From Thermoplasmata archaeon (GTDB taxonomy: Archaea; Thermoplasmatota; Thermoplasmata; Lutacidiplasmatales; UBA184), in the NCBI GenBank assembly GCA_035946105.1, contig DASYZN010000185.1:1-29315 (forward strand): 29,315 bases of DNA, in the 5' to 3' direction. The first letter of the stretch is position 1. The number at the start of each line of letters is the position of its first letter. A program made the position numbers and the translations under genes. This document shows positions 1,144 through 22,371 of the stretch, piece by piece. The notes beneath the pieces are model-generated. The model ran no database searches. It saw only the letters and a list, made by a program, of their open reading frames with translations, and was not told the DNA's origin.

Positions 1144-1155
1144 CGTCGGGGCCGC

Positions 1156-3317: not shown

Positions 3318-3381
3318 CGGACGCTCGGAGCCGGCCCGCCGTATTTCCGCCGGGCTCGGCCGGCGGAAGCTGGACGATGGG

Positions 3382-4038: not shown

Positions 4039-4044
4039 GGTCCC

Positions 4045-4512: not shown

Positions 4513-4649
4513 GCCGCGCCACTTCGGCCTCGCCTAATGGGTTCATCGGAGGGGACCGAGGGAGGCCGGACCCCGAACATCGCCCTGTCGGACCCCGGGC
4601 CGCCCTCCGAGGACGGCGCGGCCCCGCCCTTCCGCACGACGGACAGGTT

Positions 4650-7581: not shown

Positions 7582-7620
7582 CCTGCCCACCGAACCGTCG
7601 CGCGTTATGAGCCAATCCAC

Positions 7621-7655
7621 AAGCGTTATTTAGGTTTACAGTCTATACAATTATT
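7621..7655 (+). promoter_or_regulatory. BRE/TATA promoter of the SDR gene with an imperfect inverted repeat (putative TetR operator)
   Basis: AAGCG-TTATTTA begins 30 nt before the ATG at 7656, suggesting a leaderless transcript. TTTACAGTCTATACA (7635-7649) is an imperfect palindrome (10 of 14 positions). Confidence 0.55.
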
Positions 7656-8447: not shown

Positions 8448-8836
8448 GCATGGGGGACGGGGTCGAGGCTCGGGGAATGTGGCCCCGAGGCGGGATCGTG
8501 CCGGCGGCCCTGCTCATCGCCGTCCTCGCCGTAGGCGGGGCGCTCCTCCTCCTGGCCTTGGCGGGGGCGACCCCGCCAGCGCCGTTCGGCGGGGCCCATC
8601 CCGGTTTCTGGTTCGTATTCCCTGTCGGCTTCGGGCTGTTCTGGCTATTGGTGATCTTCGTCGTCCGTCCCCGGTGCTGGGGCTGGGGTGCCGGCCTAGG
8701 ACCTGCGCGATCGGGGCTCGACGAGGCGAAGGCCACGGTCCGGGTCCGATTCGCCCACGGAGAGATCTCGAAGGCCGAGATGGGCGAACTTCTCCGCGAC
8801 CTCGACGCGACCTCCAGCCCGACACGGAGAGGGTAG
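8444..8836 (+). CDS. Small two-TM membrane protein with a C-terminal SHOCT-like motif
   Basis: Two hydrophobic segments, then EAKATVRVRFAHGEISKAEM (SHOCT-like R.A.GEI..EE). ATGA overlap with the SDR stop. Confidence 0.7.
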   Translation: MSMGDGVEARGMWPRGGIVPAALLIAVLAVGGALLLLALAGATPPAPFGGAHPGFWFVFPVGFGLFWLLVIFVVRPRCWGWGAGLGPARSGLDEAKATVRVRFAHGEISKAEMGELLRDLDATSSPTRRG

Positions 8837-8840
8837 CCAG

Positions 8841-9563
8841 ATGCTCGACCGGTCCTCGCCCCCCTCCTTCGGCCCGGGAGGGGGGGAGTCGCGGGCGACC
8901 GACCTTCATCGGGCCGGGACGCTCCTCAGCCTTTCCGGGATCGTCTTCCTGCTTACCGTCATGGTCCTCGAAGCGCTCTCGCCGGGCTACAGCACCCATC
9001 ACAACACGATCAGCGACCTCCTAGCCGTCGGCACGGGAACCTCCCTCCTCGGCGAGCCGATGATCTTCCTGGCGGCGATGTGCTGGATCGGGGGAGCGTA
9101 CTTCCTCTTCCGGCGCACCGGTCAACCGGGGTGGCTCGCGCTCAACCTCCTCCCGGGGACGGGCCTCCTCCTGGCTGTCCTCTCACCGGAGAACGTGAAC
9201 CTCGCCGTCCATTCGTTGGGAGCCGTCCTCGCCTTCGTCCCCGGGCCGATCTCGGCCCTGCTGTCCTATCGGAGGCTCCGCTCGCCGTTCCGCTATCTCG
9301 CGCTCGCGCTCGGTGCGATCAGCCTCGCGGGGACGGCGATCTTCTTCGGAGCGTACGAGACCCCCCTGGTCCAGCAGGGGTTGGGTCCCGGCGGTTGGGA
9401 ACGGGTGATCGTCTACCCCCTCTTCCTCTGGCTGATCGGCCTCGGGAGCGATCGGCTCAGGGCATCGACCGAACGGACGCCGGGGTCGCCGAGGGTCGAG
9501 GCGGGGTTCGCGCCGGAGGGTCCGCTGGATCCGGGGGCATCGTCTTCCTTCGGAACTTCGTGA
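8841..9563 (+). CDS. DUF998 family membrane protein
   Basis: PGYS..HNTISDL near the N-terminus, GG.ER.IVYP..LW near the C-terminus, and about 6 TM segments. Confidence 0.78.
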   Translation: MLDRSSPPSFGPGGGESRATDLHRAGTLLSLSGIVFLLTVMVLEALSPGYSTHHNTISDLLAVGTGTSLLGEPMIFLAAMCWIGGAYFLFRRTGQPGWLALNLLPGTGLLLAVLSPENVNLAVHSLGAVLAFVPGPISALLSYRRLRSPFRYLALALGAISLAGTAIFFGAYETPLVQQGLGPGGWERVIVYPLFLWLIGLGSDRLRASTERTPGSPRVEAGFAPEGPLDPGASSSFGTS

Positions 9564-11790
9564 CGGCCCACAGCGCCAGCACCAGGAGCGCCAGCAAGAT
9601 CGTTCCGAGGAGGAGATATCCCTCGGTCGGAGGAATCCCGAACCAGGCGGGAGGCGCCGATCCGTTCGTTGGAGCCGCGCCGGATCCGCGGATCGTGACG
9701 CTGAGGTCCTCGGATACAGAGGCATTGGCGCTATCGTTCGCCCAGACGATCACCCCGTACCTCCCGGCGCTCGCATACCCATGGAACGGGCTCGCGACGA
9801 CGTCCCGTGAGCCATCGCCGAACAGCCAGGTCCAGTGGAATGGCGCCGTCCCGCCGGATTGGGCCGCCGAGAAGGTCAGTGCGTTCCTGACCACGGGATC
9901 TCCCACGACCGTCGGAAGAGCGAGTCCGAGCGTTGGGTTCACCTCGAACGGGACGGAGGCAGACCTCGTCGCAACCCCAAGGGAGTCGGTGACCTGTACG
10001 GTAACGGAATATCGACCGAAGACGGTCAAGGAGCAGGCGATCGAGGCTCCGGACGTTGGGCAGCCGGTCGGGATCCCGAACCATTCGAACGCATACCCTC
10101 CGGATCCCTGAGATCCGGTCGCCGTCAAGACGAGGGTCTGGCCCACGTCGTACGATCCACGGGGGAGACGCACACTCGCTAAGGGACCCGGCGAGCTCAC
10201 GAGCCGGATCGAGGAGCTCACGGATCGGCCGAGACCGTCCGTCACCGTCAGGGTGACGGAGTAGGTTCCCGCCCCCGTGGGGGTGCAGACAAGCAGCGAG
10301 GTTCCCAAGTGATCCCCCAGAGTGAAGTTCACGGAGGGATCGCACCCCAAACCGTTCGGAGGGACCGAAGCGTACGTGGCGGTGTCCGTGCCGTCCCCGA
10401 TCCCCCAGAGCGTTGCGTTGAGCTCGACGCGTTGACCGACCTCAAGTGAATGAGGAGGGCTCCCGGCGGCGATCGCCGACACCGGACCCTCAGCGAGGAG
10501 GGTCGAGATCACCGAGATCGCGGTGCCGACTCCGTTGCCGAAGTCGGCCACATAGATCCACCCTGTGAACGGGTCATAGACCTCGCCCGTGGGCCCACCA
10601 CCCACGGTGAGGGTTGCGGCGACGAAGGTGCGGTTGATCACCGTGACGTACCGTCCGCCACCGAAGTCGTCCGTGTGCGGGACGTAGAGGTACCCATTGT
10701 CTGGGTCGAAGAGGGGCGTCACGAGGCTGGTGGAGGTGTTGCCGACGCCGATCGTCACCTGTATGTGGGTGTCATTCAGGACGGTCACGTTGCCCTGTCC
10801 ATAGAGGGTCGCGAAGTAGGCCCATCCATTCCGCGGGTCGATTGCCGCCGGAACCGGGTCGCCCCACACCGGGACCGAAGCGATCCGGGTTAACCCATCG
10901 ATGACGTCCACAAAGGTCGGAGCCGAATTCGCCGTCGAGGCCATGATGAGACCGTTGAAGGGATCGAACGTCACGTAGAAGGGGGTCCCACTGAGGTTTA
11001 CAATGGTGGCCACGGCCGTCGATCCGTTCAGGACGGTGAGGTTTCGTGAACTGGAATCGGCAACGTACACCCATCCGTTCCGGGAATCGAATGCCTCCGC
11101 ACTAGGGCCAGGACCAACGGTTGCGGTGGCCACCACCCGGGTGCCGACGATTACCGATACGGTGCTCGAATTGTAGTTGGCAACATCCATCGAGCCGTGC
11201 GCGGCGTCGAAGACGATGGCGCCCGGTTGTCCTCCGACCGGGATCGAGGCTATCAGCGTTGTGTTGCTTAGGACGCTCACGTTGTTGGATGACCCATCTG
11301 CGACGTAGACAAGGCCATTTTTCGGGTCTAGAGCGAGTGCTGTGGGGCCGGGGTCCGTAGTCACGGTGGCCACGATGGCCGAGCCCGAGAGGATTGTGAC
11401 GTCGTTCGAGTCGGAATGAGAGAAGTAGGCGAGCCGATTCCCTGGATCGAAGAGCCCAAAGTCCGGACCAGCGCTCACTGGGATGCTCCTCACGACCGTC
11501 CCGGATTCGTAGACCCTCGAGAGATTCGCGGACGAGAGGCTCTGCCGAGCCCCCGCGGTGAGAGGGTGGTACGTCGGTCCCGGAGAGTTCGCGGGGAGCT
11601 CGTCCGGAACGGAGGCGCCTTGCGCCATGAGTGATCTGGGAATCTTCCAGGCCGAACCGATCGGGGAGTGATGCGAGCCCGGCGGAGAAGGAGACGATTC
11701 ACTTCGGGCGCTCAGGGACGAGGCGAGGAGAAGGCACGCGAGAACGGCGAGAGCGATCCCTCGGCGCGAGGAGAGCGCCTGCCCCTTCAT
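9457..11790 (-). CDS. Secreted YVTN/YncE beta-propeller plus PKD-domain cell-surface glycoprotein
   Basis: Signal peptide; eight blades of the form ..V..GP....FDP.NG.VYVA......V.V; PKD motifs (W.FGDG, H.YA..G.Y.V); C-terminal TM helix; many N-x-S/T sequons. Confidence 0.9.
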   Translation of the reverse strand: MKGQALSSRRGIALAVLACLLLASSLSARSESSPSPPGSHHSPIGSAWKIPRSLMAQGASVPDELPANSPGPTYHPLTAGARQSLSSANLSRVYESGTVVRSIPVSAGPDFGLFDPGNRLAYFSHSDSNDVTILSGSAIVATVTTDPGPTALALDPKNGLVYVADGSSNNVSVLSNTTLIASIPVGGQPGAIVFDAAHGSMDVANYNSSTVSVIVGTRVVATATVGPGPSAEAFDSRNGWVYVADSSSRNLTVLNGSTAVATIVNLSGTPFYVTFDPFNGLIMASTANSAPTFVDVIDGLTRIASVPVWGDPVPAAIDPRNGWAYFATLYGQGNVTVLNDTHIQVTIGVGNTSTSLVTPLFDPDNGYLYVPHTDDFGGGRYVTVINRTFVAATLTVGGGPTGEVYDPFTGWIYVADFGNGVGTAISVISTLLAEGPVSAIAAGSPPHSLEVGQRVELNATLWGIGDGTDTATYASVPPNGLGCDPSVNFTLGDHLGTSLLVCTPTGAGTYSVTLTVTDGLGRSVSSSIRLVSSPGPLASVRLPRGSYDVGQTLVLTATGSQGSGGYAFEWFGIPTGCPTSGASIACSLTVFGRYSVTVQVTDSLGVATRSASVPFEVNPTLGLALPTVVGDPVVRNALTFSAAQSGGTAPFHWTWLFGDGSRDVVASPFHGYASAGRYGVIVWANDSANASVSEDLSVTIRGSGAAPTNGSAPPAWFGIPPTEGYLLLGTILLALLVLALWAVTKFRRKTMPPDPADPPARTPPRPSATPASVRSMP

Positions 11791-11972
11791 GGATGCCCCC
11801 AGTTCGAGAGAACGGATTACGACGCCTCAAAGCCCGTAGGCAGCTCATGACCAGTCCCTCAGGGGACCAAGCTACTGCCCCCTCGGCGTCCGATCCTACC
11901 GAAGGGCGAAGTGGAAGGGATTAAGGACCATCAGCCCCCATCCCCCGCGACCGAATTGGGAAGCGGGTTCCG

Positions 11973-13034
11973 ATGAAGATTGTCGTCGTGCTTTATCCGG
12001 GAGGCGCCGCTGCGAAATCGACCCCCGAGCTACTGGGGGCCGCCGAGAACGCCCTCGGGCTTCGACCGTACCTCGAACCGCTCGGCCACGAGCTCGTGGT
12101 GCTGACGGAGAAGGAGCGCGACCTCGACCACCACCTCCCGACAACCGACGTGCTGGTCACGACGCCGTTCTGGCCCGCCTATGTGACCCGGGAGCGGATC
12201 GCGAAGTCCCCCAAGCTGAAGCTCGTCCTCACCGCGGGGGTCGGCTCGGACCACATCGACCTCGGCGCGGCGGCCGATCGGGGGGTCACGGTGGCCGAGA
12301 TCACCGGCTCGAACGTGGTGAGCGTCGCCGAGCACGCCGTCATGCAGATCCTCGCCCTGGTCCGAAACTACCTCCCCGCGCACCGCCAGGTCCTCGAGGG
12401 ACGATGGGACATCGCCGAGGTCGCCGCACGCTCGCACGACCTCGAAGGCAAGGTCGTGGGCATCGTCGGTGCGGGACGGATCGGCCAGCGGACGGCGATC
12501 CGGCTGAAGCCGTTCGACGTCCACACGCTCTACTACGACTACCGACGCCTGTCGACGGTCGAGGAGCAGGTGCTCGGGGTCTCCTATGCACTCCTCGACG
12601 ACCTCATCCCGCGATGCGACGTGATCACGCTCCATTGCCCTCTGACACCCGAGACCGAGGGGCTGTTCAGCCGCGAGCGCCTGTTCGCGATGAAGCGCGG
12701 CGCGCATCTCGTCAACACGGCCCGGGGGAAGCTCGTGAACACCGCGGCCCTCGTCGAAGCCCTCGAGAAGGGCCACCTCGCGGGGTACGCCGGGGACGTC
12801 TGGTATCCCCAACCCGCCCCGGTCGACCACCCGTGGAGGAAGATGCCGAACCACGGCCTCACGGTCCACGTGTCGGGAACGACCCTGGAGGCCCAGAAGC
12901 GCTACTCCGATGGGGTCCGGGACTGCCTCGCAAGGTTCTTCGCCGGGCGCCCCCTCGAGCGCGACTACGTGATCGTCGAGGGGGGCAAGGTCGTGAGCCC
13001 GAGCTACAGCTACGCGTTCCGGACCCCCGGTTGA
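11973..13034 (+). CDS. fdh: NAD-dependent (metal-independent) formate dehydrogenase
   Basis: PFWPAY, TAGVGSDHID, GSNVVSVAEH, GAGRIG, NTARG, GDVWYPQPAP.DHPWR, and H.SGTTL.AQ.RY. Confidence 0.95.
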   Translation: MKIVVVLYPGGAAAKSTPELLGAAENALGLRPYLEPLGHELVVLTEKERDLDHHLPTTDVLVTTPFWPAYVTRERIAKSPKLKLVLTAGVGSDHIDLGAAADRGVTVAEITGSNVVSVAEHAVMQILALVRNYLPAHRQVLEGRWDIAEVAARSHDLEGKVVGIVGAGRIGQRTAIRLKPFDVHTLYYDYRRLSTVEEQVLGVSYALLDDLIPRCDVITLHCPLTPETEGLFSRERLFAMKRGAHLVNTARGKLVNTAALVEALEKGHLAGYAGDVWYPQPAPVDHPWRKMPNHGLTVHVSGTTLEAQKRYSDGVRDCLARFFAGRPLERDYVIVEGGKVVSPSYSYAFRTPG

Positions 13035-13083
13035 GCCCCCCGCCCCCCAGGGGCCCGTCCGGAGGCGGCCCTCGCAGGCCCTT

Positions 13084-13107
13084 GTTGTAGCGGGCGTAGC
13101 CTACAAC
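13084..13107. promoter_or_regulatory. Palindromic operator GTTGTAG-N10-CTACAAC upstream of the small DUF1059-like gene
   Basis: A perfect 7-bp inverted repeat with a 10-nt spacer, followed 2 nt later by a TATA-like TTCATCA. A second copy lies at 14284-14307. Confidence 0.6.
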
Positions 13108-13165
13108 GGTTCATCACCCCCGTCCGGGTTCCCCCGATGCCGCCTAGCGGCAGTAGGGAACGAAC

Positions 13166-13324
13166 ATGGGATGCGGACGACTCAAGCTGGCCTGCGACGA
13201 CGGATTCGAGGTCGTGACGAAGGACCACAAGGAACTCGTGGCCGTCACCCAGTGGCACCTCGAGCATACCCACCACAAGAAGGCCTCCGAAGCCGAGATC
13301 ATGGGGATGGCCAAGCACCCGTAG
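13166..13324 (+). CDS. 52-aa DUF1059-like small metal-binding protein (absent from the ORF track)
   Basis: Hand translation gives MGCGRLKLACDDGFEVVTKDHKELVAVTQWHLEHTHHKKASEAEIMGMAKHP*. The C..GFEV.....EL......H....H pattern matches DUF1059-type proteins, and codon usage is host-like. Confidence 0.7.
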   Translation: MGCGRLKLACDDGFEVVTKDHKELVAVTQWHLEHTHHKKASEAEIMGMAKHP

Positions 13325-13342
13325 GGTAGACCGAACGAACCC

Positions 13343-13377
13343 GGGGCCCCGCCCCGACATCGCCGGGCGGGGACCCC
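13343..13377. terminator. GC-rich hairpin between convergent genes (possible terminator or processing site)
   Basis: GGGGCCCCGCCCCG-acatcgc-CGGGCGGGGACCCC pairs with small bulges. There is no U-tract, so function is unproven. Confidence 0.25.
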
Positions 13378-14238
13378 CTAAAGGACGCCCCGGACCCGGC
13401 GGGATCGAAGGCCGCTAGGAGACCTGGGGGAGGTGGGGATCGCCGGCCGTCCCCTCGCCCAGACCGATCTGAAGTAGGCGACCTGGCCGAAGACGAAGTC
13501 CGGAGTATCGGTCCAGAGCGCGATCTCCTCGACCCCGGGCCCGCTCGCCTCCGGCACGAGGAACACCATCACCTCGCGGTCGTCGACGATGGTCACCCGG
13601 CTCGGCTGGGGGTCGACGGTGCGGACCTGCGCCCCCGGGTAGCGGTGGCCCGCGCGCCCGAACCGCCGGGCGAGGGCGGACCCGAGCGGGGTCGGGGGGT
13701 GCAGGACCCAGAGGCGGCCGCCCCGGCCGAGGAACGCAGGCAGCTCGGTATCGAGCCCGAACCGGGCCGACTCCTCGAGGGCGCGCGCCGTGATCATGAC
13801 CCTCAGCTCCCGCTGGGCGTGGCGGACCATCTCCCGAAGGTGCGGGTAGACCGAGGGGGCTCCCGTGAGCAGCTGGTACCTGGGGGCGCCTCCCAGCGGC
13901 CCGTAGTTCAGCTCCGGCAGCGACTCCGCGAGGCGCTGCGCGAGCCCGGCATCCTCCTCGAGGGTCCGCCGCCGTTCTAAGAGGCTCCGCTCGAGGAGGA
14001 TCCCCGGCGGGATCGGGACGTACCGTCGGGGTCGCTCCGGCGTCACCTGGACGAGGCCGCGGGCCCGCATGGCGTCGAGCGTCCGGTAGGCGAGGACCCG
14101 GTCGACCGGGGCGTCCCTAAGGAGCTCGCGCGCCGTCGAGCGCCCCCGGCGGAGCAGGAAGAGGTAGAACCGCGCCTCCCGATCGGTGAAGCCGAAGCGG
14201 CCCATCGCCGCGAGCAGGTCCTTCCATTCCATCGTCAC
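13378..14238 (-). CDS. TrmB family transcriptional regulator
   Basis: N-terminal wHTH (GFTDREARFY..LL..G.STA.EL......R..AY..L..M...GLV....RP..Y) plus a PLD-fold-like effector domain (R.TIVD.RE). Confidence 0.9.
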   Translation of the reverse strand: MTMEWKDLLAAMGRFGFTDREARFYLFLLRRGRSTARELLRDAPVDRVLAYRTLDAMRARGLVQVTPERPRRYVPIPPGILLERSLLERRRTLEEDAGLAQRLAESLPELNYGPLGGAPRYQLLTGAPSVYPHLREMVRHAQRELRVMITARALEESARFGLDTELPAFLGRGGRLWVLHPPTPLGSALARRFGRAGHRYPGAQVRTVDPQPSRVTIVDDREVMVFLVPEASGPGVEEIALWTDTPDFVFGQVAYFRSVWARGRPAIPTSPRSPSGLRSRRVRGVL

Positions 14239-14283
14239 GGGCGGTCCTACCGGGTCCGCCCCGAGGGCAGTCCGCCATATACG

Positions 14284-14307
14284 CTAGTAGACACCAAGCG
14301 CTACAAC
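14284..14307. promoter_or_regulatory. Second copy of the palindromic operator, upstream of the TrmB gene
   Basis: On the minus strand it reads GTTGTAG-CGCTTGGTGT-CTACTAG, followed 2 nt later by TATATGG. Confidence 0.6.
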
Positions 14308-14359
14308 CAGGTCCCCGGCGGCGGAGCCTTCGGCCCCCGTCCGTCCCCGGCCGCCCGGT

Positions 14360-15361
14360 TCAGGCCGTCACGCGCGCCGGGGACATCCAGGCGCTCTTCG
14401 TCACGACCGCGCCCGTCGCGCTGTCGACCCGGGCGAGCACCCCCGCGGCCCGTCCGAGCATCGAGAACTCGAGGGAGTACCAGAAGACGGTGAAGTGGTC
14501 CGGGGCCTCCCGGACCTCGGCGAAGTGGTGCGTCTCGGCGAGGACCCAGCCCTCCTTCAGGGACGGCCCGTAGCTCCGCTCGAGCGCCTCCCCCACCCCC
14601 GAGACCGGTCGGCCGCTCGCCTCCCCGATGCCGAACTCGAGCGTCCGCGGGTTCACCTGGGCCCCCGAGAGGACCCGGTAGTCGGCCGTGCGCAGTCTTC
14701 GGCGGCCCCCCTCGATGCGGTCGTCGGCCAGGAGGAAGACGAACGGATTCCCCCTCGGGATCACCGCGCGGTACCCCTCCCGACGCTGGACGATGCCGGC
14801 CCGCCATCGGCCGATCCCCCGGACCGAGAGGTACGTGCCATAGACGGCGAGGAGCAGCCAGGCCGTCGCCTCCCAGAAGGCGACGGGGACGCGCCCGCGC
14901 TCGTAGATCATGAGCCAGAAGGAGAACCCGGTGAACGCGAGGGTCCCGAGGTTGATCGCCCGGTCCGCATCGAGATGGAACTCCCACTCCGAGAACGGGG
15001 CGAACGGGGGGACGGCGTAGTGGGTGAACCCGTCGAGGAAGACGTGGCTCAGCCCCCCCGCCTCCATGGCGAGGAAGTAGAGGACCCACGATCCGGCGGC
15101 GAAGGCGCTCCCGAGGACGTCGGCGAGCACGATCGGGACCAGGAACGCCCCGGCGAGGGCGACGATCGTCACCCCGGTGATCGAATGGGTGATCCCGTGG
15201 TGGCGCAATAGCGGAAACCGTCGGGCGAGCGGGAAGAAGAGCGCGTCGGCGTCCGGGAGGCCCCCCGCGAGGGCGCCGGCGGCGATGTACTGGAGGCCCG
15301 TCGGCCCCCAGAGCCCGAACGAGAGCAGGTAGGCGACGAGGACGTGGGTGAAGAGGTCCAT
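14360..15361 (-). CDS. Membrane-bound metal-dependent hydrolase (YdjM/DUF457-like)
   Basis: MD..TH, LPD.D, HHGITHS and SH.FLD motifs with several TM segments. Start set at MDLFTH (15361). Confidence 0.85.
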   Translation of the reverse strand: MDLFTHVLVAYLLSFGLWGPTGLQYIAAGALAGGLPDADALFFPLARRFPLLRHHGITHSITGVTIVALAGAFLVPIVLADVLGSAFAAGSWVLYFLAMEAGGLSHVFLDGFTHYAVPPFAPFSEWEFHLDADRAINLGTLAFTGFSFWLMIYERGRVPVAFWEATAWLLLAVYGTYLSVRGIGRWRAGIVQRREGYRAVIPRGNPFVFLLADDRIEGGRRRLRTADYRVLSGAQVNPRTLEFGIGEASGRPVSGVGEALERSYGPSLKEGWVLAETHHFAEVREAPDHFTVFWYSLEFSMLGRAAGVLARVDSATGAVVTKSAWMSPARVTA

Positions 15362-15419
15362 CGGTCGGAGGGGTACCGGCCCGGGGGGAAAACGGCTCGG
15401 AGGGACTCGAGGGGAGCCG

Positions 15420-16766
15420 TCAGCCGCCGGCCGTCCCCTTCCCGAGGCGCTCGAGGAAGCGATCGAGGACGTGGGCGAGCCGCCCGTCGAGGTCGTCGTA
15501 CTCGTAGCGGACCGGGACGATCGGCGGGACCCCCCGGACAAGCCGCCGCAGGTCGACGGGGCTCCCGTCGACGACGAACTCCGCCCCCGACGCGCGGATC
15601 GTCGCCTCGAGGTCGGTGATCTGGGCGGCCGAATACCCCATCGCCGGCAGGATCCGGTGGAGATGGGGGTAGGAATCGTAGACCGTCCGGAGGCTCCCGA
15701 CGGCGAACGGGTGGGGGTCGAGGATCTCGGCGCCGTGGGCCTTCGCGAGGAGGGTGCCGGCGCCCGTATCGAGGCCCCCGTGGGTCACCGTCGGCCCGTC
15801 CTCGACGACGAGGGTCCGGCGCCCTCGGAGGCGTTCGGGGTCGTCCGCGGAGATCCGCAGCGCCCCGCGCAGTCTGGGCGCCGAGGGGTTGACCGACGCG
15901 GCGTTCGCCTCCACCGTCGCGATGTCCTCGGGGCGGGCGGAGTCGGTCTTGCTGACGAGGACGACGTCGGCCATTCGGAGGTTCGCCTCGCCGGGATGGT
16001 AGGAGAGCTCGTGGCCGGCGCGGTGCGGATCGACGAGGACGAGGTGGAGATCGGAGACGAAGAACGGGAGATCGTTGTTCCCGCCGTCCCAAATGACGAG
16101 GTCGGATTCGGATTCCGCCGCCCGCAGGATCCGCTCGTAGTCGACGCCCGCGAAGACAACCATCCCGGCCTTGAGGTGGGGCTCGTACTCCTCCCGTTCC
16201 TCGATGGTGCAGTGCGCCCGGTCGAGGTCGGAGAGGTCGGCGAAGCGCTGGACGGCCTGGGCCGCCAGGTCCCCGTAGGGCATCGGATGGCGCACGATAG
16301 CGACCCGCCGGCCCCGCTGTCGAAGGTACTGGGAGACGAATCGGGTCACCGGGCTTTTGCCGACGCCCGTGCGGACCGCGCCGATGCTCACGACCGGGCG
16401 GCTCGAGCGGAGCATCGTCTCGGCCGGGCCGGGGAGCAGGAAGCTCGCGCCGGCGGCGAGGGCGACCGACGCCTTGTGCATGACGTCGAGGTGAGAGAGG
16501 TCGGAGTAGGAGAGCACGACCAGGGTCACGTGGTCCCTTCGGACGAGTTCCGCCAGCTCGGACTCGGGGACGATCGGGATGCCGTTCGGGTAGAGGGGGC
16601 CCGAGAGCGCCGGCGGGTAGGAGCGGCCGGCGATGTCCGGGATCTGGGCCGCGGTGAAGGCGACGACCTCGAATTCCGGTCGATCGCGGTAGAGCCGGTT
16701 GAAGTTGTGGAAGTCCCGACCCGCGGCGCCCAGGAGGATCACGCGTTGGCGGGCCATGCCGGCCAT
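15420..16766 (-). CDS. COG2403 P-loop enzyme (cyclic 2,3-diphosphoglycerate synthetase-like; arginine synthetase ArcE-like)
   Basis: GAAGRDFHNFN, VAFTA.QIP.I.GR.YP, YSD.SH..VMH, Walker A AVRTGVGKS, RHPMPYGDL, IEEREEYEPH, WDGGNND, and VEDGPT.THGG. Confidence 0.85.
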   Translation of the reverse strand: MAGMARQRVILLGAAGRDFHNFNRLYRDRPEFEVVAFTAAQIPDIAGRSYPPALSGPLYPNGIPIVPESELAELVRRDHVTLVVLSYSDLSHLDVMHKASVALAAGASFLLPGPAETMLRSSRPVVSIGAVRTGVGKSPVTRFVSQYLRQRGRRVAIVRHPMPYGDLAAQAVQRFADLSDLDRAHCTIEEREEYEPHLKAGMVVFAGVDYERILRAAESESDLVIWDGGNNDLPFFVSDLHLVLVDPHRAGHELSYHPGEANLRMADVVLVSKTDSARPEDIATVEANAASVNPSAPRLRGALRISADDPERLRGRRTLVVEDGPTVTHGGLDTGAGTLLAKAHGAEILDPHPFAVGSLRTVYDSYPHLHRILPAMGYSAAQITDLEATIRASGAEFVVDGSPVDLRRLVRGVPPIVPVRYEYDDLDGRLAHVLDRFLERLGKGTAGG

Positions 16767-17153
16767 GGGGGGCGCGCCGAGAAATAGGTGGCGGGGGCGC
16801 TCCGTTCCGGTTTCGCCGCCGGCCGCTCAGCCCTCCCGATCGGGGGAAACCCCCGGGCCGACCGGGCCGATGGAGGGAGCGCCGTCCTCTCCGCTTCCGT
16901 CGTCGGGGTGCCCGGGCTCGAACGGTCTCACCGGCTTCCGGGGGACTCGCCCCCGTTCGCTGGACCGATGACGCACCCGGACGAGCCGAAGACGGACGGT
17001 GCGCCCCGGCCGAACGCCGTGGGCCGCGCAGCCGTCCTGGGTCGACTCCCCGAGGTCAGGATCCCGTCCGCCGGCCGCCCATGCGCCGGGCCACCTCGTC
17101 CCTGCCTCCTTCGTTCGGCGAGCCCGACCGGGCAGGGCCGCGCAGGAGCGATG

Positions 17154-17459
17154 TCAGGGTTTCGAGACCGATCGGGGAGGATCGGCCGGTGCTTTCCGTT
17201 GGGCCTGCCGAGGGAAATGGACGAACACGAGGTAGGCGAGGATCGCGACGTACAGGACGAGACCCCCCCCGATCGCCAGGGCGACGTTCTCCCAGACCCG
17301 GGAGGTGCCGGCATCTTGGAGGTAGCCGAGCAGCCCCGACCCGACGACCGTGAACCCGACGCCGAGGGCGATCTGGGCGGTGGTCGGGCGGCGCCGGTAG
17401 AAGACGGCCGAGATGAGTCCGGGGGCGAACATCGGCCGGGGGAGCGGGCGCCGGTACAT
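17154..17459 (-). CDS. Small two-TM hypothetical membrane protein
   Basis: Two clear hydrophobic helices (IALGVGFTVVGSGLLGYL; VALAIGGGLVLYVAILAYLVFV). No family recognised. Confidence 0.55.
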   Translation of the reverse strand: MYRRPLPRPMFAPGLISAVFYRRRPTTAQIALGVGFTVVGSGLLGYLQDAGTSRVWENVALAIGGGLVLYVAILAYLVFVHFPRQAQRKAPADPPRSVSKP

Positions 17460-17799
17460 ATCGGGGGCTAGGGGCGAACGATCCGGGCCGCCGAGAGGGG
17501 ACGACGGTGTCGGAGGCCGACTTCCGGAGGCGTTGATCGTTCTCGAAGAGCGTCTCGATGGGCGCTAGCGTGAGCCTGCCGTGCCTCCCATCGGCCACGA
17601 GACGTTCCCTCTCAGCGAAACCCGGATCCCGCTCCACGAATCCCTCAAGGGTCGCACGGAGGACGTCTGGGTTGCTCGGGCCGCCCGTCTAAAGCCGTTC
17701 GAGCTAGGTCCGGCTGGATACCCGCACGCAAATGGTGGAAGGGGGATCGACGGCCGTGCTGCACCGCGTCTGGCGAGCAGGGCGGGAGTGGTTTCCCCG

Positions 17800-17835
17800 G
17801 TGTCGGGGGGGTGGATTGACGAAGAGTTCGAATCC
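17800..17835. repeat. Outermost att-like copy (attR) of the tRNA 3' end
   Basis: GTGTCGGGGGGG-TGGATTGACGAAGA-GTTCGAATCC has the same 12+14+10 spacing as the copies at 19064 and 20023. Confidence 0.7.
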
Positions 17836-17892
17836 TTGACGGCCTGGCTGCGCTCGCCTCTCCTCAAGCGATCGGACGGGCTTCACGAGTTC

Positions 17893-18288
17893 CTATGGAG
17901 GCAGCAGAGACTCGACCCAAGTGCGGAACCTGCTCGCGCATTGCCGGACCTCCTGCGCTTCTCGTTCGGTGAACTCCCGGGACTCGAACTCTACTCGGTT
18001 TTTCGCCTCGAGGGTACGAGAAACCTGGCGAACCATCCGTTCCGCATCCGCAAGATGGAGCGTGGCGACCATGCCTACGACTCCCGAATGATCTTGCCCG
18101 CTCCAACGCTGTCCTGTGCGCCCCACCGTAAGCGCGTCGCTGGCTGAGATCACGGAGTGGACCCCAAGGAGTCCTACGGAGTTCCAGGCACCCTCCTCAG
18201 CCGCACGGACCATCTGGTCGGCGAACTCGTTCGAACGTTCCCAATAGACCTTGAATCGAGACTTGGGTAGTACCTCGGTCCGTCCCAT
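17893..18288 (-). CDS. HEPN domain protein (partner of the minimal nucleotidyltransferase)
   Basis: All-helical 131-aa protein with H.VISA.DAL, SGQDH, KNRVEF and a C-terminal EA......A..F..WV. It lies 3 nt downstream of the MNT gene. Confidence 0.72.
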   Translation of the reverse strand: MGRTEVLPKSRFKVYWERSNEFADQMVRAAEEGAWNSVGLLGVHSVISASDALTVGRTGQRWSGQDHSGVVGMVATLHLADAERMVRQVSRTLEAKNRVEFESREFTEREAQEVRQCASRFRTWVESLLPP

Positions 18289-18291
18289 CGG

Positions 18292-18885
18292 TCAATCGAC
18301 TCCGATGACGCTCATTCCATCCTCTTCAATGGACTTCAGGAGAGCCGGATTGCGCGGTCGCGCCACCTCTGCTCGAGAGTAGATGAGGGCCGAAACGGGA
18401 TTCCCGTACCGATTCCAAAGGTCCGACCGAAGACGGTCGACCGCTTCCGCCGCCCTGGCCCTTCCGCCGGCGGCTCGCACTTCGAGGAAGAGATCGATGT
18501 CGCTGTCATCCCTCTCTTCCCCCCGCGGAATCGAACCAAACAGTCGAGCCCGCTCGATCCCCGCCAGCCGGAGGCCATCCGATAGTTCCCGAACTAGTAC
18601 GGAGCGGAGGCTGGACTCGTGGTGGAAGAGGTCTGCAAGGACGGGCCAGAAAACGTGTCTCCGATTGAGCTGCCAGGAGTAGGACCTCCCGACCACCTCT
18701 CGGTCCACCAACGACGTATCTGCGAGCTCGCTCAGTTCTCGCGCGGCTTGCGCGACCGAGACTCGGGCCGTTCGGGCGAGCTCCCGACCGGTCCACCTTT
18801 GATCCGGAGCGCCGAACATTGTCCGAAGCAGCCTGAGCTTGGTCGGGCTGCCGAGTAGGGGGTCCAACGCGTCATGAAATCTCAT
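18292..18885 (-). CDS. wHTH (ArsR-like) fused to a minimal nucleotidyltransferase (MNT)
   Basis: N-terminal HTH (TGRELARTARVS...A.REL.EL....LV) and an exact GS-X10-DXD motif (FGSIPRGEERDDSDIDL). Start at MRFH (18885) is inferred from the upstream GAAGGGCTTATGTA promoter. Confidence 0.85.
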   Translation of the reverse strand: MRFHDALDPLLGSPTKLRLLRTMFGAPDQRWTGRELARTARVSVAQAARELSELADTSLVDREVVGRSYSWQLNRRHVFWPVLADLFHHESSLRSVLVRELSDGLRLAGIERARLFGSIPRGEERDDSDIDLFLEVRAAGGRARAAEAVDRLRSDLWNRYGNPVSALIYSRAEVARPRNPALLKSIEEDGMSVIGVD

Positions 18886-18998
18886 GTATCGTATAGGAGA
18901 CATATGACTCGCAGCGATTACATAAGCCCTTCGGTCGATGGCTTTGGCCCCGAAAGGGGTCGGTCTCATGGCCATTGTGGCAACTGCTCTCGGCCGGC

Positions 18999-19099
18999 AG
19001 GTTCAAATCCTTACGAATCCGAGGTGAAATCCACTCGAATTCACCTCAGAAATCGCAAGTCTTGTGTCGGGGGGGTGAACCGCAAGAAGGTTCAAATCC
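18999..19099. repeat. About 100-bp att-like unit A
   Basis: AGGTTCAAATCC, then 49 nt containing the inverted repeat GAGGTGAA/TTCACCTC, then TCTTGTGTCGGGGGGGTGAACCGCAAGAAGGTTCAAATCC. The last 40 bp are 39/40 identical to unit B. Confidence 0.9.
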
Positions 19100-19165
19100 T
19101 AACCGAAGCCCGAACTCGCCCGCCAGCGGGGATGATGGACCTGCCCTCCCCGTCCGTTGGTCAGA

Positions 19166-19582
19166 CTACCGAAGGCCCTCTACGTCGGACGTGCCAATCA
19201 GGCGGATTCCCTTCACTCGTCGGAAATCGTGGTCGTAGGTCCAGACGGGAGCGTCGAGGTTCAAGGCGAGCGCTACGTATTCCCAGTCGGTCTCGTCTCC
19301 AGCGGCGCCTGCCAATGCCTTGGCTTTCTCTTCGTGTCGTCGGAGAGCATCGAGCGGCACTTCCTGGATCTGTCCACGGAGAATTCGAAGGACCGAATGG
19401 GTTTGGGCCGGAGTGATCCCCGCCCGTCTAGCGACTCGAGGAAGCTGTCGTTCGGCCTCTTTCACAATGTCGGGCGGGGCCACGAATCTCACGCCCTTCG
19501 CATGGAGCAGGACCTGCCGGGCTCGTCCGTCCTTGAAGAGGCAAGCGACGAGGACGCTTGCGTCCACAACGACGGGTTTCAA
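19166..19582 (-). CDS. PIN domain (VapC-like) toxin
   Basis: VVVDASVL, E42-like VKEAE, D.TD.EYVALAL, and VWTYD.DF. Confidence 0.9.
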   Translation of the reverse strand: MKPVVVDASVLVACLFKDGRARQVLLHAKGVRFVAPPDIVKEAERQLPRVARRAGITPAQTHSVLRILRGQIQEVPLDALRRHEEKAKALAGAAGDETDWEYVALALNLDAPVWTYDHDFRRVKGIRLIGTSDVEGLR

Positions 19583-19797
19583 GGATGCCTTTGGGCCGCC
19601 GCACGCCGGATACGGCGTCCGAGCGTGACAGCATCTCGCTCCGTCAGTTGGGACGCCTCGAGCAATCGATCCAGCACATGTAACCGGTCAACCTCTTGCT
19701 GGAAGGCGGTTCGAGCGACCTCTGACCAGCGGATCTCTGGATGCCGACGCATCTCTTCGTGCAGTCCTTTCGGAACCGCGAGGGTGACGTTCGTCAT
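19579..19797 (-). CDS. Ribbon-helix-helix-type antitoxin
   Basis: MTNVTLAVP..L...M..HPEIRWSEVAR.A. It overlaps the PIN start (ATGA) and is a typical archaeal antitoxin partner. Confidence 0.85.
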   Translation of the reverse strand: MTNVTLAVPKGLHEEMRRHPEIRWSEVARTAFQQEVDRLHVLDRLLEASQLTERDAVTLGRRIRRAAAQRHP

Positions 19798-19817
19798 CGG
19801 TTATCGGACGGCATAAG

Positions 19818-19845
19818 GGAAATAAGTAATTTTCCATAACCTACG
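19818..19845 (-). promoter_or_regulatory. Promoter/operator of the RHH-PIN operon
   Basis: Minus-strand GTAGGTTATGG (TATA-like) overlaps the inverted repeat GGAAA-N8-TTTCC (19818-19835) in an AT-rich patch upstream of the antitoxin ATG. Confidence 0.4.
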
Positions 19846-19956
19846 ACGGGAGATTCTCGGAGACGGGCTCGTTCGGAGCAGCGGAGCGGTGGCACGCGCC
19901 CAGGAACCATCGAAAGAGGCGGACGGCCCTTGCCTGACCGTAGAGTGTTTTTCGGG

Positions 19957-20058
19957 AGGTTCAAATCCGTGTGAGACCGATCTGGAATTTAACCAATTTC
20001 TCGTCAGTGAAACTCGATTCTTGTGTCGGGGGGGTGAACCGCAAGAAAGTTCAAATCC
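19957..20058. repeat. About 100-bp att-like unit B
   Basis: AGGTTCAAATCC, then 50 nt, then TCTTGTGTCGGGGGGGTGAACCGCAAGAAAGTTCAAATCC. Same architecture as unit A. Confidence 0.9.
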
Positions 20059-20165
20059 CCTCCAACCCGCCAGAATCGCAAAGTTGCCGCGACCGATGTC
20101 CCGGTATCCGACCGGCTCAACTGCTGCGGCGGCCACACACCGAGCGATCTATCGATTATGGCCAT

Positions 20166-20207
20166 CTATTGGTGTTTATTGGTCATTTGCCCAATAACTC
20201 CAAATAG
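20166..20207. promoter_or_regulatory. Nested inverted repeats upstream of the AAA ATPase (putative operator)
   Basis: A perfect TTATTGG-N8-CCAATAA (20176-20197), flanked by CTATTGG (20166) and CCAAATAG (20200). Confidence 0.55.
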
Positions 20208-20237
20208 AACCCAATTCTTGCCGCGACCGAGGCGGCC

Positions 20238-21416
20238 GTGGATCCTGTCACCAACCCGTTTTCGCCGGGTGCGGGAGCCCCGCCACCCGAGCTGGTTGGA
20301 CGGCAGGAGATCCTCGAGCGCGCGCGGGTGCTACTTGCTCGGGTCATCCAAGGTCGCTCGGCGAAGAGCATCCTCATGACCGGACTCCGGGGCGTGGGAA
20401 AAACAGTCCTTCTCAATGAAATCAAAGCGCTCGCCGCCGAATCCGGCTATCGAACGATTCTGGTCGAGACGCCCGAACAATCGGGCTTGCTTCCTCACCT
20501 CATACCCCAAGTCCGCGGTTTGCTCCTCGAGCTTGACCAGGGAACGGGTGTTAGCGCGCGCGTGCGCCGAGCACTCGGAGTTCTGAAGTCGTTCGCTTCT
20601 GCGGTTCGCGTGGGATACGCTGGCTTCGAGATCTCCCTGGATTTCGAGGCCCAGGCTGGAGTTGCTGACAGCGGCGACCTCGAGCATGATCTCGCCGACC
20701 TCTTCGTCGCGTTGGCCGAGGCCGCGAAGGACCGCGGGACTGGCGTCGCACTGCTGATTGACGAGCTTCAGTACATTTCGGAACTCGAGCTCCGGGCCCT
20801 GACCATGGCGATGCACAAGCTCGCCCAGGAACAGCTTCCGCTCGTCCTCGTCGGCGCCGGACTTCCGACGCTTCCCGGTCTCGCCGGGCGCGCGCGCTCG
20901 TACGCTGAACGACTGTTCGACTTCCCAACCATTGGCGCTCTAACGCAGGACGAGGCCGGTCGAGCCATCATCGCCCCGATGGCTTCCGCCCAGGTACGGA
21001 TCGACCCGGCCGCCCTAGCAGAAATCTTCGCCCAGACTCAGGGGTATCCGTACTTCCTCCAAGAGTGGGCGTATCAGACTTGGAACCGCGCGGCGGGTTC
21101 ACCTGTTACCCTAGATGCCGTGAGAGAAGCGACGCCGATTATCACTGCCCGCCTTGACGAGGGGTTCTTCCGTGTGAGATTCGACCGGCTAACGCGATCG
21201 GAGCGTCGATACCTTCGTGCCATGGCAGAAGTCCCCCCTGACCAACGAACCACCGGGAAGGTGGCGGAAATCCTCGGGTTCAAGGTCACAAGCATGGGTC
21301 CGACACGTGGGAATCTGATCAGCAAAGGAATGGTGTACAGCCCGGAACACGGTCGGCTAGACTTTACCGTTCCACTTTTCGACAAGTTCATGCGAAGGAC
21401 GATTCCTAACCTATAG
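20238..21416 (+). CDS. Stand-alone AAA/P-loop ATPase (AAA_16-like) with a C-terminal wHTH
   Basis: NPF.PGAG..PP.L.GR, Walker A GLRGVGKT, Walker B LLIDELQ, T.GYPYFLQ, and a C-terminal HTH (TGKVAEILG...TSMGPTRGNLISKGMVY). GTG start. Confidence 0.9.
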   Translation: MDPVTNPFSPGAGAPPPELVGRQEILERARVLLARVIQGRSAKSILMTGLRGVGKTVLLNEIKALAAESGYRTILVETPEQSGLLPHLIPQVRGLLLELDQGTGVSARVRRALGVLKSFASAVRVGYAGFEISLDFEAQAGVADSGDLEHDLADLFVALAEAAKDRGTGVALLIDELQYISELELRALTMAMHKLAQEQLPLVLVGAGLPTLPGLAGRARSYAERLFDFPTIGALTQDEAGRAIIAPMASAQVRIDPAALAEIFAQTQGYPYFLQEWAYQTWNRAAGSPVTLDAVREATPIITARLDEGFFRVRFDRLTRSERRYLRAMAEVPPDQRTTGKVAEILGFKVTSMGPTRGNLISKGMVYSPEHGRLDFTVPLFDKFMRRTIPNL

Positions 21417-21504
21417 CGTCGGCTCAACGAGCGATTCCTGCGAAACTCGCGGGCAAACCAATCGTATGTTGTCGGAAACAATCGATTCCGAATCATCATC
21501 AGTG

Positions 21505-21608
21505 TGTCGGGGGGGGGATTTGAACCCCCGGCCCCAGGATCTCTCAGGGGTCGGTCGGGCGCCGACCCGCTATGAGTCCCGTGCTCTACCAGGCTGAGCC
21601 ACCCCGAC
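21505..21608 (-). tRNA. tRNA-Met(CAT), elongator type, with a 30-nt intron at position 37/38 (21541-21570)
   Basis: Full cloverleaf: GTCGGGG/CCCCGAC acceptor stem, GCTC/GAGC D-stem, CGGGA/TCCTG anticodon stem, CT-CAT-A loop, GGGGG-TTCAAAT-CCCCC T-arm and discriminator A. The bulge-helix-bulge uses CTCA/TGAG. G1:C72 and A31:U39 favour elongator Met over initiator or Ile2. CCA is not encoded. Confidence 0.95.
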
Positions 21609-21648
21609 GTTGGACCCGGGGAAGCGGTGCTCCCCCTACTAGGCTTCG

Positions 21649-22371
21649 TCAGGCCGCGGGGGCCTCGCCAGAGGCGGGCACGAGCCCGGGGCCAGGCGAC
21701 GGGAGGTCGAGGGTGGGCGCCGGCGGCGCTCCCTCGGGAGCGGGAGCGTCCTCGGCGATCGTCCCGAGGACCTCGGAGCGGCGGATCTCGATCTTCTTGA
21801 GCGGATAGAGCGATTTCAACCCGTGGGCCAGGGTTTTTCCGAGCTCGCCCTGCAGCATCTCGCGGACGAACTCGGGGGACGTCCGCTTGGCCGCCTCTTC
21901 GGTCAAGAGGCTCCGCAGCCGGTGACGGAGCTCGGCCCTCAGCCGGGTCTGGAGCCGCTGCTCCCCGACCGCCACGGGCTTGAGGACGATCTCGACCCCG
22001 TCCTTCGTCAGCACGGGGAGGGAGGTGTCGATCTTGGACCGCTTCCGCCGGGCCAACCGCCGGACGTAGTCCGTCGTGAGATCGTGCCCGATGAATCGGC
22101 TCTCGGCCACGTTGTCCCCGGAGATCCGGTCGATCTGGAATCGCAGCTTCACGTGGGCCTTGCCGATGTCGGCGCCCCCGGAGATCTCCTGGAGCGTCGT
22201 CTCGAGGGTCCGGCCGACGACCTGCTCCGGTTCGGAGGCCATCGTCTCCCCGATCTCGGCGTGCTGGAAGAAGCCCGGCGCGCGGACCTTGTACCAGTGC
22301 TTCGAGCGCCACTTGTCCTTGACCGTGCGGGCCAGGGTGGACTTCTTCGCCGCGCCTTCCTTCTCGGCCAT
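21649..22371 (-). CDS. rps3ae: 30S ribosomal protein S3Ae (eS1)
   Basis: KDKWRSK.WY.V.AP..F, GRT.E.TL, KL.F.I, F.GH.LT.DY.R.L.RR..SKID, and YPLKKIEIR.SEV. Confidence 0.96.
   Translation of the reverse strand: MAEKEGAAKKSTLARTVKDKWRSKHWYKVRAPGFFQHAEIGETMASEPEQVVGRTLETTLQEISGGADIGKAHVKLRFQIDRISGDNVAESRFIGHDLTTDYVRRLARRKRSKIDTSLPVLTKDGVEIVLKPVAVGEQRLQTRLRAELRHRLRSLLTEEAAKRTSPEFVREMLQGELGKTLAHGLKSLYPLKKIEIRRSEVLGTIAEDAPAPEGAPPAPTLDLPSPGPGLVPASGEAPAA

Follow-up and report, generated by a model that had tools for sequence, protein, structure and literature searches.

Integrons are the textbook route by which prokaryotes collect small, promoter-independent gene cassettes, and islands at tRNA genes that are not integrons are usually seen as assemblies of large self-mobile elements and of what remains of them. 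For archaea, a review of tyrosine recombinases mentions tandem integration and the loss of integrases, and it describes neither a recombinase-less cassette system nor elements that exploit Xer recombinases (PMC8371274). The locus analysed here lies on a stretch of 29,315 nucleotides (hereafter the window: GenBank assembly GCA_035946105.1, contig DASYZN010000185.1, positions 1 to 29,315 of the forward strand) from the metagenome-assembled genome (MAG) of a Thermoplasmata archaeon of the order Lutacidiplasmatales. It consists of three small gene cassettes stacked on the 3' end of a tRNA(CAU) gene and separated by copies of a 12-mer, the core, that they share with this tRNA. The cassettes have sharp boundaries and are independent of one another, they have been transferred recently between species, they are gained and lost at the core at the population level, and they carry no recombinase gene in cis. 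We consider it likely (probability of roughly 0.78) that such cassettes, themselves without a recombinase, enter the 3' end of tRNA(CAU) serially by conservative site-specific recombination, are excised and reshuffled, and decay at the distal end. An earlier prediction made from the letters of the window alone (the original prediction) had proposed that non-autonomous cassettes bounded by attachment (att) sites accumulate serially at this tRNA end in an integron-like manner, and both related genomes and metagenome contigs uphold it.

Cassettes, core repeats and the tRNA(CAU) anchor

The anchor of the array and the four copies of the core are the following:

21505..21608, minus strand: tRNA(CAU) gene (Rfam RF00005, 56.4 bits, E 7.7e-10)
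21504..21515, plus strand: core copy 1, within the tRNA 3' end
20023..20034, plus strand: core copy 2, junction of the RHH-PIN and AAA cassettes (in metagenome run X5 the end of a different cassette abuts 20025)
19064..19075, plus strand: core copy 3, junction of the MNT-HEPN and RHH-PIN cassettes
17800..17811, plus strand: core copy 4, junction of a decayed remnant and the MNT-HEPN cassette
21649..22371, minus strand: ribosomal protein S3Ae gene (Pfam, 2.6e-55)

The tRNA is of the Met or Ile2 type and, as it starts with G1, is no initiator. Because an intron of ~32 nt directly follows the CAU anticodon, ARAGORN missed the gene under default settings and detected it once introns were allowed. 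The 12-mer GTGTCGGGGGGG, complementary to tRNA positions 63-73 and one trailer base, was found on the plus strand at 17800, 19064, 20023 and 21504, precisely where the original prediction had placed it, and the core-to-core spacings of 1264, 959 and 1481 bp agree with the predicted module lengths. None of 100 dinucleotide shuffles gave four matches to the 12-mer (≤1 mismatch), and these four were its only copies in the whole MAG (1.62 Mb, 293 contigs). The units are thus flanked by direct repeats of a tRNA 3' end while the tRNA itself is intact, as is typical of site-specific elements, and tRNA(CAU) acts as both the attB and the anchor of the array. Its pairing with the S3Ae gene was kept in 21 congeneric genomes. 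Among the 37 tRNAs of the MAG, only tRNA(CAU) had 11-nt repeats of its 3' end downstream, which is weak evidence given the fragmentation of the MAG.

The cassettes and their genes are:

20023..21503, plus strand: cassette 1, AAA, 1481 bp
20238-21416, plus strand: AAA_16 / archaeal ATPase-type P-loop NTPase gene (AAA_16, 2.4e-14)
19064..20022, plus strand: cassette 2, VapB-like plus PIN (RHH-PIN), 959 bp
19579-19797, minus strand: VapB-like antitoxin gene (VapB_Sulfo, 0.003, weak)
19166-19582, minus strand: PIN toxin gene (PIN_2, 4.8e-23)
17800..19063, plus strand: cassette 3, MNT-HEPN, 1264 bp
18292-18885, minus strand: nucleotidyltransferase gene of the winged helix-turn-helix (wHTH)-MNT type (the longest open reading frame reaches 18975)
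17893-18288, minus strand: HEPN gene (RWSGQDH motif; protein-atlas features 0.96)
17484..17799, minus strand: remnant of a fourth, older cassette with an antitoxin pseudogene, its toxin partner lost

Profile matches bore out the predicted gene content, namely an AAA ATPase, an RHH plus PIN pair, and a wHTH-MNT plus HEPN pair. The wHTH-MNT protein matched NTP_transf_2/HTH, Polbeta, PADLOC PDC-M05A (5e-23), MntA (1.4e-4) and PDB 1WOT, and its gene stands beside a HEPN gene with an Rx4-6H motif, so that the pair is a putative MNT-HEPN (type VII-like) toxin-antitoxin (TA) system. In the RHH-PIN cassette, an open reading frame of 72 aa with a weak VapB match lies upstream of the PIN gene and overlaps it by 4 nt, in the manner of VapBC systems. 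The orientation of the cargo is mixed among the cassettes, and there can therefore be no common promoter. The third-position GC content of the cassette genes (~0.68, against 0.85-0.95 in the host genes of the window) fits a foreign origin.

The outermost core copy, at 17800, had been thought to border the chromosome, which proved wrong. To its left we found a VapB/DUF7557-type antitoxin pseudogene (17518-17754, minus strand) with two in-frame stops and 58% identity (tblastn, E 9e-24) to the antitoxin of a cassette in the relative G041, and the remnant 17484..17799 is also homologous to a cassette of G019 (3643-4296). The array therefore continues leftwards as a decayed fourth cassette.

The array in related genomes and soil metagenomes

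For each relative, up to ~12 kb flanking the tRNA-Met locus were inspected, some flanks being shorter because the contig ended. Arrays built on the species' own core (GTGTCGGGGGGG or RTGTCGGAGGGG) were present at no fewer than 16 of the 21 congeneric tRNA-Met loci, with cassette numbers from 1 up to at least 5 and cassette lengths of 0.65-5.2 kb (0.65-2.6 kb for most). A search with the core plus right-arm pattern, which had been suggested along with the original prediction, returned 35 of the 186 genomes of the order, belonging to one family and four genera, and 0 matches when the reversed pattern was used as a control; the pattern was also found on three soil metagenome contigs. Cassette number, order and content at the tRNA-Met locus vary among the relatives, as had been predicted.

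Movement is seen in the three-unit array of the congeneric genome G022. There, the unit next to the tRNA (1265 bp) is the MNT-HEPN cassette that in the window occupies the distal slot. Over 1277 bp the two copies share 98.1% nucleotide identity, whereas the adjoining tRNA and S3Ae DNA of the two species is only 76.9% identical. The homology begins and ends at the cores, and both arms accompany the cargo. The same cassette with the same ends is thus found in another slot of another species, and a metagenome contig described below lacks exactly this unit of 1264 bp, showing that the cassette moves as a unit. Diverged MNT-HEPN cassettes (65-70% nucleotide identity) were found beside the same tRNA core in five further genomes.

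The original prediction spoke of toxin and defence cassettes; across the genus, the cargo is better described as general accessory genes. In addition to TA pairs (VapB/DUF7557 with ParE/RelE-like partners), cassettes of the relatives encode a Kelch-PKD surface protein, STAND-type AAA_16-TPR and cyclase-TPR proteins, an Nramp transporter, an ABC transporter, hydrolases, an arsenic-resistance-type cluster, a PEP-mutase family protein and a cNMP-binding oxidoreductase. Signs of decay are concentrated in the distal cores and their cargo.

Two arrays of relatives deserve separate mention. That of G001 (G001:C27:300064-315460) spans ~15 kb with at least 5 att joints and holds two paralogous adenylate-cyclase-TPR genes in adjacent cassettes as well as a STAND-type AAA_16-TPR gene. 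At the locus L040 (G021:C35), a second complete intron-bearing tRNA(CAU), 88% identical to the first, lies 2.4 kb away (oriented positions 8696-8800 and 11107-11210) and delimits a cassette in which a zinc-type dehydrogenase-like gene is found; the tRNA copy carried by this unit seems to be complete and not the 3' end alone. One of the relatives, JAKIWS01 SubAcS15-120, is a published MAG of Ca. Lutacidiplasmatales (PMC9287336), and the publication mentions no integrases, mobile elements or toxin-antitoxin genes.

The locus was also recovered from public soil metagenome runs in the form of Logan contigs, four of which were compared with the window, and these confirmed the predicted variability in cassette presence with precise, cassette-sized gains and losses at the core. 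In a contig of run X6, ~95-98% identical to the window in the shared parts, position 17802 is joined to 19067 with 11 shared letters, a joint that omits exactly the 1264-bp MNT-HEPN cassette. In the same contig the RHH-PIN cassette (97.8%) stands in another context, and ahead of the tRNA the AAA cassette is replaced by ~850 nt of other sequence. Runs X1 and X2 have, besides contigs with the order of the window, others in which the right end of the MNT-HEPN cassette is joined straight to the tRNA, and run X5 shows the end of another cassette before 20025 and a neighbour of the G022 type before 17799. Every joint in these metagenome contigs falls at the core.

A separate observation concerns the opposite side of the tRNA. 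Contigs of runs X5 and X6 either lack ~141 nt immediately 5' of the gene (21609-21752 of the window) or have other sequence there. The segment is made up of the tRNA upstream region and the last S3Ae codons, and its variation points to a second variable spot.

Recombination arms, proposed mechanism and rival explanations

Each cassette has an arm at either end, the right arm being the left end of the cassette and the left arm its right end. Those of the window are:

17812..17835, plus strand: right arm of the MNT-HEPN cassette, TGGATTGACGAAGA-GTTCGAATCC
19076..19099, plus strand: right arm of the RHH-PIN cassette, TGAACC-GCAAGAA-GGTTCAAATCC
20035..20058, plus strand: right arm of the AAA cassette, TGAACC-N7-aGTTCAAATCC, consisting of a shortened copy of the T-arm and its inverted complement
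18987..19063, plus strand: left arm of the MNT-HEPN cassette, with aGGTTCAAATCC at 18999-19010, an 11-5-11 palindrome at 19021-19047 and a ..CCTCAGAAA.. box
19944..20022, plus strand: left arm of the RHH-PIN cassette, with aGGTTCAAATCC at 19957-19968 and a TTTCTCGTCAG box
21433..21503, plus strand: degenerate left arm of the AAA cassette (nhmmer E 2.5e-8, partial match)

The three cores outside the tRNA all have the right arm TG-N12-GTTCRAATCC, and the left-arm motif AGGTTCAAATCC stands 65-66 bp upstream of the two internal copies only, both in agreement with the original prediction; its caveat that the arm beside the tRNA (21440-21503) shows no left-arm motif also stands, this arm being degenerate. 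Two forms of right arm were recognised. In the first, the core is followed by GTATTCGAACCCCC, 2-3 nt and GGGGGTTCAAATCC, that is, by a diverged copy of the tRNA T-arm and its inverted complement; in the second, the shortened type of the window, it is followed by TGAACC-N7-GGTTCAAATCC. Most left arms have aGGTTCRAATCC on the upstream side of the core, at a distance of ~65 nt, and nearer to it (12-28 nt upstream) a box of the sequence TTTCnCGnCAGAAA or TTCTCGGCGAGAA; in a second class of left arm GGTTCAAATCC lies just 3 nt from the core.

Since the cassettes carry a T-arm variant of their own (GTATTCGAACCCCC, as against GGATTTGAACCCCC in the resident tRNA), the repeats reflect homology between attP and attB rather than a target-site duplication. 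What lies between core and GTTC stays with the right-hand cassette and the sequence up to the core with the left-hand one, and strand exchange therefore maps to the 11-12-bp core TGTCGGRGGGG. The right arm of the MNT-HEPN cassette reads GGATT/AATCC in the window and GCATT/AATGC in G022, two copies that differ at just 23 positions; both halves changed together and the symmetry was retained, which speaks for its being functional. Over ~100 nt, the junctions resemble one another by 70-90%. As single strands the right arms of the window fold weakly (-4.4 to -7.1 kcal/mol, z -0.5 to -2.2), and the junctions matched no tRNA pseudogene or known RNA in Rfam at E values up to 5; the arms are best read as predicted double-stranded protein-binding sites. 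The palindrome at 19021-19047, GAGGTGAAATC-CACTC-GAATTCACCTC, is non-coding, lies upstream of the wHTH-MNT start and is conserved in the G022 copy, and it could be an operator of the wHTH antitoxin rather than a part of the att arm.

On this basis a free cassette would carry an attP composed of left arm, core and right arm. The left arm would read aGGTTCRAATCC, ~30 nt and then a TTTCnCGnCAGAAA-type box; the core, of 11-12 bp, would have the same sequence as the 3' acceptor/T-stem strand of the host's tRNA(CAU); and the right arm would be a degenerate T-arm copy with its inverted complement GTTCRAATCC, which is well conserved, behind it. Through conservative site-specific recombination inside the core, the cassette would enter at the tRNA 3' end, the tRNA would be regenerated and a core copy would be left on the far side, so that repeated events would stack cassettes, and recombination between any two cores would remove or reshuffle them, while distal units would decay with time. 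Joints of insertion and excision would be expected within TGTCGGGGGGG. The recombinase would be supplied in trans and would most likely be a tyrosine recombinase of the host or of a helper element, which might have escaped assembly or binning. The circular intermediate, the class of the enzyme and the insertion next to the tRNA are parts of the mechanism that we infer. The outcome would be an integron-like flexible island of TA, defence-type and other accessory genes, each unit with its own predicted expression signals.

The array had been predicted to be integrase-less, and indeed no tyrosine recombinase was found in or near any of the arrays of 38 genomes. No PF00589 match lay on the array contig within 30 kb in these genomes, the four matches of the MAG itself all being on other contigs, with the Xer-like gene on C203 and the remaining tyrosine recombinases on C95, C121 and C253, and no integrase homologue was detected in 24 flanks, most of ~12 kb and some ending at contig ends. 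A tblastx comparison of 12 integrase loci with all flanks returned scattered noise only. SSV-type integrases (PF16795; int(N)/int(C)) were absent from the five genomes tested, two of which (G022 and G001) have serine recombinases (PF00239) on contigs without an array. The idea that the att arms encode the C-terminal codons of a recombinase was discarded, as no junction significantly matched any integrase locus. An Xer-like gene is present in nearly all array genomes. In six genomes that are 89-91% complete (G075, G113, G117, G004, G155 and G165) the Xer-like protein was the sole tyrosine recombinase detected. The integrases of G000 and G022, the carriers of the 98%-identical cassette, are just ~50% identical at the protein level.

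As for free elements, a genome scan and a metagenome scan for an attP-bearing element revealed further chromosomal arrays only, plus one chance match in Lacimonas, and neither the 38 genomes nor viral contigs nor the metagenome scan showed an autonomous element with this att, although absence from MAGs is no proof. Two integrase genes with other neighbours were noted. On contig C121 of the MAG (72-672, locus L006), the end of a tyrosine integrase gene is followed at ~10 nt by a 47-nt tRNA fragment, which shares 96% identity with the 3' half of tRNA-Ile(GAU) of G007 (L064), as in an ordinary element that targets a different tRNA. At locus L058 (G005:C10, 4034-4919), a gene with a tyrosine integrase catalytic domain (66.7 bits) ends ~120 nt from an archaeal RNase P RNA gene on the opposite strand (Rfam, 199.8 bits), and this element may target the RNase P RNA gene.

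Several observations weigh against the proposed serial site-specific insertion. No recombinase for the cassettes was identified among the genomes examined, and neither two viral-contig scans nor the rest of the MAG yielded a free or viral element bearing the attP. The AAA cassette has a left arm with a recognisable inner box, without GGTTCAAATCC and with an insertion of ~13 nt beside the core, and the closest homologues of this cassette (72-74% nucleotide identity, in G131, G061 and G073) have no core within their 1.5-kb flanks; as judged from this degenerate arm and these core-less homologues, the AAA cassette may now be immobile. The population evidence comes from assembled contigs and not from raw reads, the metagenome variants may stem from co-occurring species rather than from one polymorphic population, and MAG contigs could be strain mosaics.

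A further possibility concerns the enzyme. A lineage-wide recombinase of the host (the Xer-like XerA being the obvious candidate) might read the T-arm-shaped boxes, in which case GGTTCRAATCC and its complement would be recognised, strands would be exchanged in the adjacent acceptor-stem segment, and the cassettes would be archaeal counterparts of dif modules and of integrative mobile elements exploiting Xer (IMEX). A dif site was sought, and the best 11-6-11 palindrome of the MAG (contig C65) was not conserved in 30 relatives; a second site with the T-arm palindrome (GTTCRAATCC...GGATTYGAAC) was absent from 5 genomes. We regard this possibility as tentative and, on balance, unlikely. If true, any tRNA end would be usable as a capture site, and chromosomal, recombinase-unlinked capture over many tRNAs of soil Thermoplasmata would amount to an independently evolved analogue of integrons.

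The cassettes might instead have been integrated site-specifically in the past and be exchanged today by homologous recombination only, with the tRNA, the ~110-nt junctions or neighbouring cassettes as anchors. The lack of an identified recombinase and the 70-90% likeness of the junctions over ~100 nt would suit such a process, and the flexible islands of other prokaryotes are thought to turn over in this way. Nevertheless, the window, G022, X1/X2, X5 and X6 all show cassette-specific arms that start right at the 11-12-nt core. As the arm sequences begin at the core on both sides, all crossovers map to it and are not spread over the arms, and 11-12 nt are too short for efficient homologous recombination, which makes this explanation improbable.

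We hold it to be more doubtful still that the repeats are fossil scars, that is, leftover att sites of integrase-bearing islands that lost their integrases and most of their genes and whose units are now immobile. Loss of the integrase after integration is known in archaea (PMC8371274), the distal unit is a pseudogene remnant, the AAA cassette has a degenerate arm, and the older 11 kb of the island are without att sites. Scars of this kind do not account for a 98.1%-identical cassette with identical ends in another slot of a species only 77% identical, for the precise presence and absence of 1264 bp at the core in a ~95-98% identical strain, or for the conservation of both arms across cassettes with unrelated cargo, and no fragment of an integrase was left in any of the 38 arrays. 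That the repeats are deletion remnants of one large element, a possibility raised with the original prediction, is likewise contradicted by the cassette variation and the precise gains and losses.

Serial insertion of transposons or casposons, with the 12-mer as target-site duplication, would also yield n+1 repeats, and family-2 casposons do target tRNA 3' ends with duplications of 14-15 bp. This explanation is very improbable, as the cassettes have no terminal inverted repeats, carry the GTTCRAATCC box in the same orientation at both ends and bear their own diverged T-arm copy beyond the core, and as no Cas1, DDE or other transposase was found in the arrays. A classical integron, or a cluster of attC sites lacking integron-integrases (CALIN), with attC-bounded cassettes moved by IntI, can be set aside almost entirely in spite of the similar cassette size, the TA cargo, the lack of a nearby integrase and the integrons reported in archaeal MAGs (bioRxiv 10.1101/2022.02.06.479319), because the junctions are 12-26-nt direct repeats of a tRNA 3' end without attC R/L boxes, the two GTTCRAATCC boxes per junction are direct and not inverted, the crossover lies at the core and not at a G|TT box (the spacer from core to GTTC follows the right-hand cassette), the right arms fold weakly as single strands, the cargo orientation is mixed, and the array is headed by the tRNA and then the S3Ae gene with no tyrosine recombinase nearby. 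An own integrase, as tRNA-integrative elements have it, was also lacking, since the arrays contain no PF00589, PF16795 or PF00239 match. The defining features of these classes having been looked for and not found, the array is neither an integron nor a casposon nor a self-integrating island.

To the left of the array lies an older part of the variable island, which together with its conserved border comprises:

6336..17483, no strand assigned: older section of the variable island, bounded by the conserved DUF885 gene on one side and by the array on the other
4461-6335, plus strand: DUF885 gene, conserved left border of the island
4045-4512, minus strand: RidA/L-PSP gene, conserved left border of the island
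3382-4038, minus strand: fibrillarin gene, conserved left border of the island

Synteny with G041, G005, G010 and G014 breaks at ~6330, and because it resumes leftwards only there, we delimited the variable island as 6.3-21.5 kb. According to Pfam, the genes of the older part encode GNAT and SDR proteins, a PKD/NHL surface protein, a 2-hydroxyacid dehydrogenase, TrmB, YdjM and a P-loop protein; no recombinase was found in 6336..17483, where a relaxed att scan gave no convincing sites. Synteny with G041 extends over the block 227-6330, which in that genome is only ~3 kb away from the tRNA-Met array.

Comparison with known systems

Abundant archaea of acid soils carry arrays of 0.65-5 kb cassettes with conserved two-sided arms and recent transfer between species, and with no recombinase in the array. 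Should the enzyme be found, it would define a new recombinase-site pair targeting a tRNA end, explain how TA, defence and resistance-type genes circulate in uncultured soil archaea, and test whether integron-like gene capture evolved more than once.

The streptococcal tandem accretion of cis-mobilizable elements (CIMEs) at tRNA genes and the Islander-type tandem tDNA islands are likewise bounded by att sites at a tRNA 3' end and stacked in tandem (PMC4383910; see also the review of integrative and mobilizable elements, PMC5704250). CIMEs, moreover, depend on an integrase in trans, as the present cassettes would, and both are att-bounded units with neither recombination nor transfer genes. In CIME systems, however, a helper island or integrative and conjugative element with an integrase resides in the same array, whereas none was found in the arrays of 38 genomes, and CIMEs are usually products of decay, whereas here units of 0.65-5 kb have two-sided arms conserved across a family. 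Archaeal SSV ('suicidal') and pNOB8 integrases act in the same domain of life on the same kind of target, a tRNA 3' end, with tandem integration (PMC8371274, PMC7253208), but those elements have an integrase, split or intact, beside the att site, and the present arrays contain no int(N)/int(C) fragments or PF16795 match.

The tycheposon islands of Prochlorococcus are also anchored on tRNA genes, their new units push older ones outwards, partial tRNA copies serve as separators, and their cargo of niche and defence genes resembles that of the present arrays (bioRxiv 10.1101/2020.12.28.424599). Tycheposons, however, bring along a tyrosine or serine recombinase of their own as well as genes for replication and measure several kb or more, and their integrase-free pieces are read as remnants. 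Dif modules of Acinetobacter plasmids and IMEX are, like the cassettes, small recombinase-less modules with short sites and often TA or resistance genes, and it is a host recombinase that shuffles them (PMC13141974, PMC6449649); they differ in having dif-like 11-6-11 palindromes, a plasmid location and alternating orientation, in place of a tRNA end, direct orientation and no demonstrated similarity to dif. Integron arrays and CALINs, reported from archaea as well (10.1101/2022.02.06.479319 = PMC9668308), share with the cassettes the small, promoter-independent format of mostly one or two genes, the richness in TA systems, the shuffling and a recombinase located outside the cassette, but they rely on IntI, attI, attC and Pc, in place of which we found an 11-12-bp core identical to the tRNA, a tRNA platform and both cargo orientations. 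The layout of the array thus combines features of tRNA accretion and CIMEs, of tycheposon islands, of integron/CALIN arrays and of Xer-dependent dif modules.

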